Assembly: GCA_963825525.1 (NCBI GenBank)
Contig: CAWGTN010000002.1
Location: 832,001-896,000, forward strand
Source: an uncultured Chloroflexia bacterium
GTDB lineage: Bacteria; Chloroflexota; Limnocylindria; QHBO01
Direction of reading: 5' to 3'
Length of the DNA: 64,000 bases
Of the stretch, positions 16,218-16,555 are shown piece by piece. The notes beneath the pieces are model-generated. The model had not been told where the DNA came from. It did no database searches and saw only the letters and a program-made list of their open reading frames with translations. Both the position numbers and the translations under genes were made by a program. Positions within the stretch are counted from its first letter, which is position 1. Each line of letters starts with the position of its first letter.

Positions 16218-16394
16218 CGGCCGCGAACGCGTCGACGCGGGAGCAGTACGCGCTGCGCCTCGTTCACAGCGAGCCGGGATGGGTGGAAGCCGGCGAACCG
16301 AGGAGCGCGGAACTCACCTGCCGAGCAGTCCGGGCGAGGAGTCCGACCGGGTGGCGCCCGATACCACGCCGACGAGTGGACCGATGAAATTCGT

Positions 16395-16470
16395 GGGGTT
16401 GTAGCTCAGCTGGGAGAGCACCTGCATGGCATGCAGGGGGTCGGGGGTTCGAGTCCCCCCAGCTCCACCA
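16395..16470 (+). tRNA. tRNA-Ala (anticodon GGC), nested inside the T-box leader
   Basis: 76-nt cloverleaf GGGGTTG...CAGCTCC-A-CCA with the G3:U70 Ala identity pair, TAGCTCAG D-arm, anticodon arm CCTGC-ATGGCAT-GCAGG and GTTCGA T-loop. Confidence 0.97.
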
Positions 16471-16522
16471 TCCTCTACCGAAGAGGCATCGGCCAAGCTC
16501 AGGTGGTACCGCGGAGATGTGA

Positions 16523-16555
16523 GCCCCTTCGTCCCGAGCAGACGGAGGGGTTTGT
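16523..16555 (+). terminator. Intrinsic terminator of the T-box attenuator
   Basis: CCCCTTCGTC/GACGGAGGGG hairpin followed by TTTGT; mutually exclusive with the antiterminator. Confidence 0.8.

Follow-up and report, generated by a model that had tools for sequence, protein, structure and literature searches.

T-box riboswitches are among the best-studied riboregulators and take tRNA as their ligand, which makes a tRNA gene within the sensing domain of one of them noteworthy. Transcripts that serve both as tRNA precursor and as mRNA are known from the thrU-tyrU-glyT-thrT-tufB operon of Escherichia coli, in which one promoter gives rise to tRNA precursors and an mRNA that are separated by ribonuclease P (RNase P), and endonucleolytic processing of a T-box leader is known from thrS of Bacillus subtilis. 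In Staphylococcus aureus, the met leader is cleaved by RNase III (PMC7913692), and both the stem and the loop of the T-box element Stem III are variable and accept insertions (PMC7583486). Here, we describe a locus within a 64,000-nt stretch of DNA from an uncultured Chloroflexia bacterium (contig CAWGTN010000002.1 of assembly GCA_963825525.1; hereafter, the window), in which a complete tRNA-Ala(GGC) gene is nested inside Stem III of a leucine-specific T-box upstream of leuS. The apex of Stem III is the one part of the discriminator known to be variable and insertion-tolerant. We consider it likely that the element is a Leu-specific T-box attenuator of a gene pair encoding a GNAT acetyltransferase and LeuS, that the only tRNA-Ala(GGC) gene of the genome stands in place of the apical loop of its Stem III, and that one leader RNA thus has two outputs.

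An initial annotation of this DNA, made from the letters alone, had proposed the nesting and pointed out the tRNA, the CUC specifier, the CCGATG/CATCGG helix, the CCTCT/AGAGG hairpin, the TGGTACC bulge and the terminator, all of which we verified in the sequence. The leader is composed of the following features.

16223–16539, + strand: whole T-box leader, from Stem I to the antiterminator 3' strand (positions 1–219 of 219 of the Rfam T-box model RF00230).
16313–16315, + strand: specifier codon CUC (Leu), within GAA-CUC-A at 16310–16316 (sequence and RF00230 alignment; CTC in 27/27 leaders of the genus).
16374–16378, + strand: GAGTG, the 5' purine string RRRxG flanking Stem III (sequence; motif as given in PMC7583486 and PMC7778990).
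16379–16386, + strand: Stem III 5' strand GACCGATG, pairing with 16487–16494 (covariation in 100 leaders).
16387–16394, + strand: 5' linker or pre-tRNA leader AAATTCGT, variable in length and only CGT in several genus members.
16395–16470, + strand: tRNA-Ala(GGC) with encoded CCA at 16468–16470 (ARAGORN; Rfam RF00005).
16472–16486, + strand: extra hairpin CCTCT-ACCGA-AGAGG in the 3' linker, 16472–16476 pairing with 16482–16486 (sequence and minimum free energy fold; lineage-variable).
16487–16496, + strand: Stem III 3' strand CATCGGCC plus AA at 16495–16496 (sequence, RF00230 and covariation; AA motif from PMC7583486).
16497–16539, + strand: T-box sequence and antiterminator with the bulge TGGTACC at 16504–16510 (RF00230; AAGCTCAGGTGGTACCGCG invariant in 27/27 genus leaders).
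16524–16562, + strand: terminator-like hairpin, CCCCTTCGTC at 16524–16533 with GACGGAGGGG at 16541–16550, followed by the T-rich tail TTTGTCGTGTCT (sequence, minimum free energy fold and conservation in the genus).

In a permissive scan of 16100–16700 (601 bases), RF00230 matched 16223–16539 with 44.2 bits (E 1.7e-8) and handled the tRNA region as a 99-nt insertion within the Stem III loop. Together with the Pfam identification of leuS and the covariation described below, this alignment confirms the position first proposed for the tRNA, that of Stem III in a Leu(CUC) T-box upstream of leuS. The specifier loop of Stem I presents its Leu codon followed by a purine (A16316; the genus form is GGAACTC[A/G]CC). 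The cognate tRNA-Leu(GAG) is encoded in the genome, and its 3' end, ACCA, is complementary to UGGU at 16504–16507 in the bulge. The discriminator follows the order 5'-RRRxG-Stem III-AA-3', the core of the helix being formed by CCGATG (16381–16386) and CATCGG (16487–16492); in the listed leaders of relatives, the helix is preceded by GAGYG, AAGYG or GAGAG. Nucleotides 16524–16539 are common to the 3' strand of the antiterminator and the 5' strand of the terminator hairpin, and the two structures are predicted, by sequence only, to be mutually exclusive. The cloverleaf, the extra hairpin, Stem III and the terminator all appear in the minimum free energy fold of the leader, but with a z-score of −0.50 folding energy alone is no evidence in this GC-rich RNA.

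The layout is strongly conserved. The 381 bases around the leader were recovered near full-length, at 80–100% identity, in 27 genomes of the genus, including the assembly that contains the window (G000; 2.58 Mb in 4 contigs, 92% complete). The tRNA is nested at the identical place in 27/27 of the aligned leaders, which show little or no variation in the tRNA itself, in the specifier CTC, in the T-box sequence or in the terminator. The two linkers flanking the tRNA differ in length, and the extra CCTCT/AGAGG hairpin is confined to some of these leaders. Across the class, we searched for a strict pattern (tRNA T-loop, 30–60 nt, GGTGGNACCGCG), with the reversed pattern as control. It matched 156 of the 401 genomes sampled; by family, the figures were 106/153 (f1), 48/92 (f2), 1/2 (f5), 0/137 (f3) and 0/16 (f4), and the reversed control gave 0 matches in every row. 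All 30 loci fetched from f2 and f5 carried tRNA-Ala(GGC) at the site, and the T-box model spanned the tRNA in 19 of 20 loci searched, the single miss being a locus that ends ~117 nt upstream of the tRNA. Genus g17 scored 0/25 by the strict pattern, yet both genomes inspected (2/2) were nested, so the pattern tallies are lower bounds. Because the same nested layout is conserved in relatives, chance and misassembly are excluded, including the chimeric assembly that the initial annotation had contemplated; the leuS upstream regions of relatives, to which it had pointed, retain the nesting and covary in Stem III.

This covariation was assessed first of all with anchors that are independent of pairing, namely the last RAGNG upstream and the AA located 4–7 nt before GGTGG. 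The anchor-based count skipped 17 of 101 leaders (anchor inside the helix in 12, short upstream sequence in 2, no RAGNG in 2, no AA in 1), and at least five of the six pairs were formed in 72 of the other 84. Over 56 distinct helix types, the mean was 4.91 pairs out of 6, whereas 2000 permutations of the partners gave 3.38 ± 0.13 and at most 3.82. A second anchored count, in which 5/101 leaders were skipped, revealed an enclosing helix of 5–10 uninterrupted pairs in 77 of 96. We also built a covariance model from 24 seed leaders, a biased choice in that each was required to have a helix of 5 bp or more and linkers of similar length; the model gave one top match in each of 100 loci, with 94 distinct rows. 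Five of the six Stem III pairs change on both sides among the seeds and all six do so in the alignment of 100 leaders, where one pair occurs as CG (35), GC (30) and UA (21). In the same alignment, Stem III cells are paired in 90.5–95.6% and the whole structure in 98.3%, versus 40–58% when partners are slid by 1–3 columns, with 0/500 shuffles reaching the observed value; these paired percentages lean towards structure, as the alignment was fitted to the model and the seeds were selected for the helix, a bias that the slid-partner control and the anchor-based count answer in part. A MAFFT alignment of 59 diverse leaders was left out of the counts because the Stem III 5' strand was misplaced in many of its rows, and an unconstrained best-helix search was replaced because of competing helices with the Stem IIA/B region in some leaders.

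The scores obtained with the T-box model bear on a first alternative, in which the T-box is a decayed relic, the leader has no remaining function beyond that of promoter and 5' leader for the tRNA, and constitutive readthrough accounts for leuS expression. The Rfam gathering scores are 93 bits for RF00230 and 29 bits for RF00005 (tRNA). At the curated thresholds of Rfam, the tRNA was the sole RNA family detected in the whole 64 kb; a scan at gathering misses the T-box because the leader scores below that value. The low score of 44.2 bits, a weak T tract and the complete loss of the T-box in sister families would all suit a relic. The genome, in turn, holds four T-box matches (79.1, 68.5, 59.6 and 44.2 bits), the three others spanning 190–237 nt and the nested leader 317 nt; as all four fall below 93, low scores appear to be a trait of this GC-rich lineage, worsened here by the insertion. 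Moreover, all 27 of 27 genus leaders agree in the specifier, the bulge, the RRRxG/AA flanks and the terminator/antiterminator overlap while linkers drift, and Stem III covaries. We thus regard decay as highly improbable. The gathering score is reached by nested leaders of other lineages in 11 of the 29 searched (5/20 and 6/9), with 133.2, 125.2, 124.6, 115.9, 108.2, 104.6, 96, 95.2, 94.7, 94.2 and 93.7 bits. The warning of the initial annotation that covariance searches may miss such a T-box is hence borne out in the window at the gathering score, but not for these 11 leaders. Annotation pipelines can overlook or split leaders of this kind, as seen in the window at the curated threshold, and public records must already hold overlapping T-box and tRNA annotations, given that several nested leaders lie above it.

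The embedded gene has all the marks of a tRNA. ARAGORN reads the anticodon ggc at 16395–16470, and RF00005 scores 62.5 bits against its threshold of 29. The G3:U70 pair and A73, which are identity elements of tRNA-Ala, occur in the window and in 101/101 unique nested leaders (GU in 94/94 distinct rows). Across 94 distinct sequences, pairing is complete (100%) in all four tRNA helices, and compensatory changes are numerous. CCA is encoded in 69/101 unique leaders; in the remaining 32/101, CCA addition would complete the tRNA. Rfam matches 46 tRNAs in the genome, three of them for Ala, with anticodons UGC, CGC and GGC; the last, the nested gene, is the sole credible tRNA-Ala(GGC) of the assembly. 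An Ala(GGC)-specific pattern matched exactly once in 50 of 61 relatives and twice in none, and in the 30 genus genomes with such a match it lies inside the leader. The initial annotation had raised the question of whether this gene is unique: it is the only one in the genome and is single-copy in 50/50 relatives with a match. By a crude count over long open frames, Ala accounts for 12.7% of codons, with GCC used more often than any other Ala codon (43.8%), while the specifier CUC makes up 45.9% of Leu codons. Single-copy status and GCC usage indirectly support that the nested tRNA would be matured, aminoacylated and used in translation.

Three ARAGORN calls stand apart from this inventory. A 'tRNA-Ala(ggc)' at C2:1128563 (92 nt) and a 'tRNA-Ala(cgc)' at C3:81726 (100 nt) were rejected, both having aberrant arms and neither being among the 46 Rfam tRNAs. 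A 97-nt 'tRNA-???' with the four-base anticodon cgag at 7385–7481 (− strand) is listed by the Rfam tRNA model neither in the window nor in the genome and is probably spurious.

The 3' end of the tRNA is also the basis of a further suggestion of the initial annotation, that the embedded ACCA pairs with the UGGU bulge ~35 nt downstream and so modulates the switch in cis or across amino acids. In the window, ACCA at 16467–16470 is indeed complementary to UGGU at 16504–16507. This pairing is not a conserved feature, since CCA is unencoded in the 32 leaders mentioned above, and the complementarity is generic, A73 and CCA being common to tRNA-Leu(GAG) and those further Leu and Ala tRNAs of the genome whose 3' ends were compared. 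In addition, the 3' end would not be free in the precursor, and the discriminator rejects even an aminoacyl group (PMC7583486). We therefore set the suggestion aside as having next to no probability.

The nesting extends well beyond the single locus within reach of the initial annotation, to the class, to other Chloroflexota and to Bacillota. A slightly looser pattern matched 32/401 genomes of a phylum sample, seven further families being among those represented, with one false match devoid of a tRNA (G549/L076). A scan of bacteria and archaea, with one genome per species, yielded at least 120 matching stretches. Among the 80 loci examined, tRNA-Ala(GGC) occupies the site in 64, a nested leader is truncated where the locus ends in 2 (L098 and L126), and the match is due to chance in 14; these false positives, 12 without a tRNA and 2 with tRNA-Thr or tRNA-Glu beside GGTGGAACCGCG, never have leuS downstream. 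According to record titles, the matches listed include Thermomicrobiales, Sphaerobacter, Ktedonobacter, Anaerolineae, Caldilineae and Candidatus Limnocylindria among Chloroflexota, and Syntrophomonadaceae, Thermosyntropha lipolytica DSM 11003, Desulfitispora alkaliphila DSM 22410, Peptococcaceae and Thermacetogeniaceae among Bacillota. Every nested locus with enough flank has a homologue of leucyl-tRNA synthetase (LeuRS) downstream, starting 48–470 nt after the T-box, or ~0.6–1.9 kb after it where other sequence intervenes. The T-box model runs full length across the tRNA in 9/9 diverse loci, with the specifier GAA-CUC-G in 8/8 alignments shown. In every case examined the nested tRNA is Ala(GGC); no other kind was found nested in a T-box by a pattern that requires a canonical T-loop and fixed spacing, which leaves the absence of other kinds unproven.

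A separate observation was made in a record of Acidimicrobiia (L159, ~6889–6950, − strand), where a T-arm-like hairpin, GGGTTCGAACCCGG, directly precedes GGGTGGTACCGCG and a full tRNA is not called. This could be an ordinary Stem III with the look of a T arm, or else what is left of a nested tRNA.

We then considered whether leader and tRNA belong to one transcript. The sole conserved −10-like box in the genus, TGTGnTATCCT, lies upstream of Stem I, ~6 nt before the T-box match, and CCTGTGnTATCCTC is invariant or nearly so in 27/27 genus leaders while its flanks vary. In the window, this corresponds to the following feature.

16207–16217, + strand: candidate extended −10 box TGTGCTATCCT for the whole leader, proposed on the basis of its conservation in the genus.

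Within the leader, the 5' strand of Stem III ends 0–8 nt from the tRNA in many relatives, which leaves a promoter no room, and in many leaders the distance is 0–3 nt, so that a separate tRNA promoter would need conserved, paired T-box sequence. No conserved TANNNT is present there in the genus alignment. RNA evidence came from six soil metatranscriptome runs containing ~0.15 of the sampled words, four of which were compared, all as contigs; with 88–99% identity to the window (mostly 90–95%), these contigs derive from relatives. Two of them, 16300–16470 (depth 35.6) and 16239–16470 (depth 27.3), join Stem I/II to the tRNA, and a third, of 284 nt and depth 8.1, combines 16234–16298 and 16391–16523 with 82 unlike letters between them; as assembled contigs they reveal no starts, ends, strand or level, and RNA libraries may contain DNA. 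Contig gaps and the shared ends at 16239 and 16470 were disregarded, as they fall at borders of conserved and variable sequence, where assembly graphs branch.

These data were set against an alternative with two overlapping but independent units, in which a promoter of its own, situated within the leader, would drive the tRNA, and the transcript of the T-box would be separate, minor or read-through. The promoter scan described below is blind to non-consensus promoters, and a tRNA with its own box does exist in sister families. The closeness of Stem III to the tRNA, which would place a −10 box in conserved and paired T-box sequence, the lack of a conserved TANNNT there and the contigs that extend from Stem I into the tRNA all speak against it, and we judge it quite improbable. 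The claim of the initial annotation that a single transcript acts as Leu sensor and tRNA-Ala precursor alike is thus well supported, by the abutment of Stem III, the single −10 box, the sole gene and the bridging contigs, though unproven, and co-transcription as the sole source of the tRNA and its processing are put forward as probable rather than observed.

The sister families referred to above illustrate a different arrangement. In f3 and f4, no T-box was detected (loci L066/G042, L067/G038 and L068/G044), and tRNA-Ala(GGC) is kept 60–110 nt upstream of leuS in the same orientation. In two f3 loci (L066 and L067), the tRNA has its own TATACT- or TAGAAT-like −10 box ~12 nt upstream, and a GC-rich hairpin, CCCCTCGCC...GGCGGGGGG-TTT, occupies the gap between tRNA and leuS, where a leuS promoter could hardly be accommodated; expression of leuS in these loci may depend on readthrough of the hairpin. 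Given that other classes and a second phylum also contain nested leaders, the most parsimonious scenario would be an ancient fusion, after which f3 and f4 lost the T-box. Such loss with retention of the tRNA-leuS pair provides a natural before-and-after series.

Another Ala tRNA was seen in the neighborhood of nested leaders. In all 11 loci checked for a second model match (L129, L142, L158, L145, L148, L073, L140, L153, L132, L116 and L108), a tRNA-Ala(CGC) lies upstream of the nested leuS leader, and in three of the 11 (L129, L142 and L158, with sequence reaching that far) Stem I begins within a few dozen bases after it. In the genome under study, tRNA-Ala(CGC) is at G000:C2:824185–824260, a position outside the window, the leader being 24 kb further downstream. 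In the lineages of L129, L142 and L158, the leader may be the tail of an Ala-tRNA operon, which would be a hint to the origin of the fusion.

On the reading that we prefer, an attenuator with a built-in tRNA gene, events would unfold as follows. A single promoter upstream of Stem I would give one leader RNA. During transcription, Stem I/II would capture tRNA-Leu(GAG) through CUC, tRNA-Ala would fold on its own and thereby bring the Stem III strands together, and the discriminator (RRRxG, Stem III, AA and the T-box bulge) would sense the charging of tRNA-Leu, with formation of either the antiterminator or the terminator. As the tRNA is located upstream of the terminator, every transcript, terminated or not, would yield a tRNA-Ala precursor, and this output would track the promoter and not the Leu signal. 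RNase P and 3' processing would excise tRNA-Ala, splitting the leader between its two tRNA-binding halves. With ~85 nt between the tRNA and the T tract, the decision very probably precedes processing.

Several points weigh against this reading. The leader of the window scores 44.2 bits, short of the 93 bits of the gathering score; Stem III contains a mismatch there (A16380 opposite C16493); and the T tract that follows the terminator hairpin is weak. A consensus scan of 15900–16800 called neither promoter nor terminator; since it looks for E. coli-type consensus sequences and extended T runs and would overlook non-consensus promoters, it is no evidence against the TGTGnTATCCT box or the hairpin, the terminator having escaped it because of its weak T run. 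An internal tRNA promoter would be compatible with the sequence alone, tRNA-Leu-dependent readthrough is itself a prediction, and the fitted alignment and the contigs carry the reservations given with them.

A more active role of the insertion was also weighed, the tRNA being then part of the switch and not a passenger: it would add ~100 nt of transcription time for capture of tRNA-Leu, or RNase P and 3' cleavage would split the riboswitch. The two cleaved RNAs might stay paired through Stem III, and cleavage might set the lifetime of terminated leaders, free tRNA-Leu and leave a hairpin at the 5' end of the mRNA. Retention of the nesting in two phyla with constant site, tRNA and gene would suit this role, as would the long uninterrupted helix that encloses the tRNA in 77 of the 96 anchored leaders. 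Stem III is, furthermore, indispensable for the discriminator (PMC7583486), so cutting its loop must matter for the RNA afterwards. On the other side, linker lengths and the extra hairpin vary freely, as for a tolerated insertion, and the two sister families that lost the T-box but kept the tRNA near leuS fit a locked-in tRNA equally well. We deem this role unlikely. We are likewise doubtful of its bolder form, in which the locus is an old conserved two-output device and tRNA excision is integral to the switch, cutting the sensor from the expression platform after the decision. If that were true, Stem III would join both halves until excision, and excision would recycle terminated leaders into tRNA-Ala, free tRNA-Leu and set the stability of leuS mRNA.

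The leader occupies an intergenic region (16134–16572) between an open reading frame (ORF) of 695 aa and the GNAT acetyltransferase gene, and is followed by two genes.

16573–17133, + strand: GNAT acetyltransferase gene, 186 aa, first gene after the leader (Pfam PF00583, 2e-19).
17130–19640, + strand: leuS, leucyl-tRNA synthetase, 836 aa (Pfam PF13603, 9.1e-67, PF00133 and PF08264).

The start of leuS overlaps the stop of the GNAT gene, for which no specific NCBIfam family was matched; a GNAT gene between T-box and leuS is found only in leaders of the sequence type of the window's family. The leuS gene is downstream of the T-box, as the initial annotation had stated, with an intervening gene that it did not mention. 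As for the other neighbors, the upstream 695-aa ORF (14046–16133, + strand) has no Pfam family and gives a weak partial match to the model of Dsr1, an anti-phage sirtuin (37.4 bits versus a cut-off of 1400), and downstream of leuS there is a ComEC/Rec2-like competence gene (20364–23336, + strand) with Competence, DUF4131 and metallo-beta-lactamase domains.

The arrangement, which should surprise specialists, has several implications. Structurally, the conserved features of the discriminator are retained even with a large RNA that folds by itself at the apex of Stem III. The supply of a heavily used tRNA would be tied to the promoter of the leuS leader, independently of the attenuation decision, and the tRNA inventories of these clades rely on a gene hidden in a 5' untranslated region. 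The tRNA maturation enzymes would have to halve the riboswitch, which raises questions of timing, leader turnover and mRNA stability. These should be directly testable in cultured strains, Desulfitispora alkaliphila DSM 22410 and Thermosyntropha lipolytica DSM 11003 being carriers that make bench work feasible.

The literature searched describes lineage-specific hairpin insertions in T-boxes and no tRNA gene inside one, with earlier mention in surveys, supplements, Rfam or TBDB being possible. Compared with the canonical T-box (RF00230), the leader has the same Stem I specifier loop, Stem II, Stem IIA/B, RRRxG-Stem III-AA order, UGGN bulge and terminator versus antiterminator, but the Stem III loop, a few bases in the canonical element, is here a 76-nt tRNA gene of another amino acid plus linkers. 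Other lineage-specific insertions, namely stem Sa of glyS T-boxes in staphylococci (PMC9177973) and those found in translational T-boxes within Stem III or Helix A2 (PMC7583486), likewise add structure that the 3' sensing domain tolerates or uses. Those are simple hairpins with no function of their own, whereas the insertion described here is the gene of an essential RNA that needs to be excised. The sister-family loci (G038, G042 and G044) share the tRNA-Ala(GGC), the downstream leuS and the orientation, and differ in that a T-box was not detected. Cleavage within the thrS and met leaders shapes mRNA stability after the decision; in the nested leaders, the cleavage sites would be set by the built-in tRNA through tRNA maturation enzymes. 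Finally, in thrU-tyrU-glyT-thrT-tufB the tRNAs stand ahead of the mRNA, whereas the tRNA of the leuS leader is found within a folded regulatory element whose two halves must cooperate.

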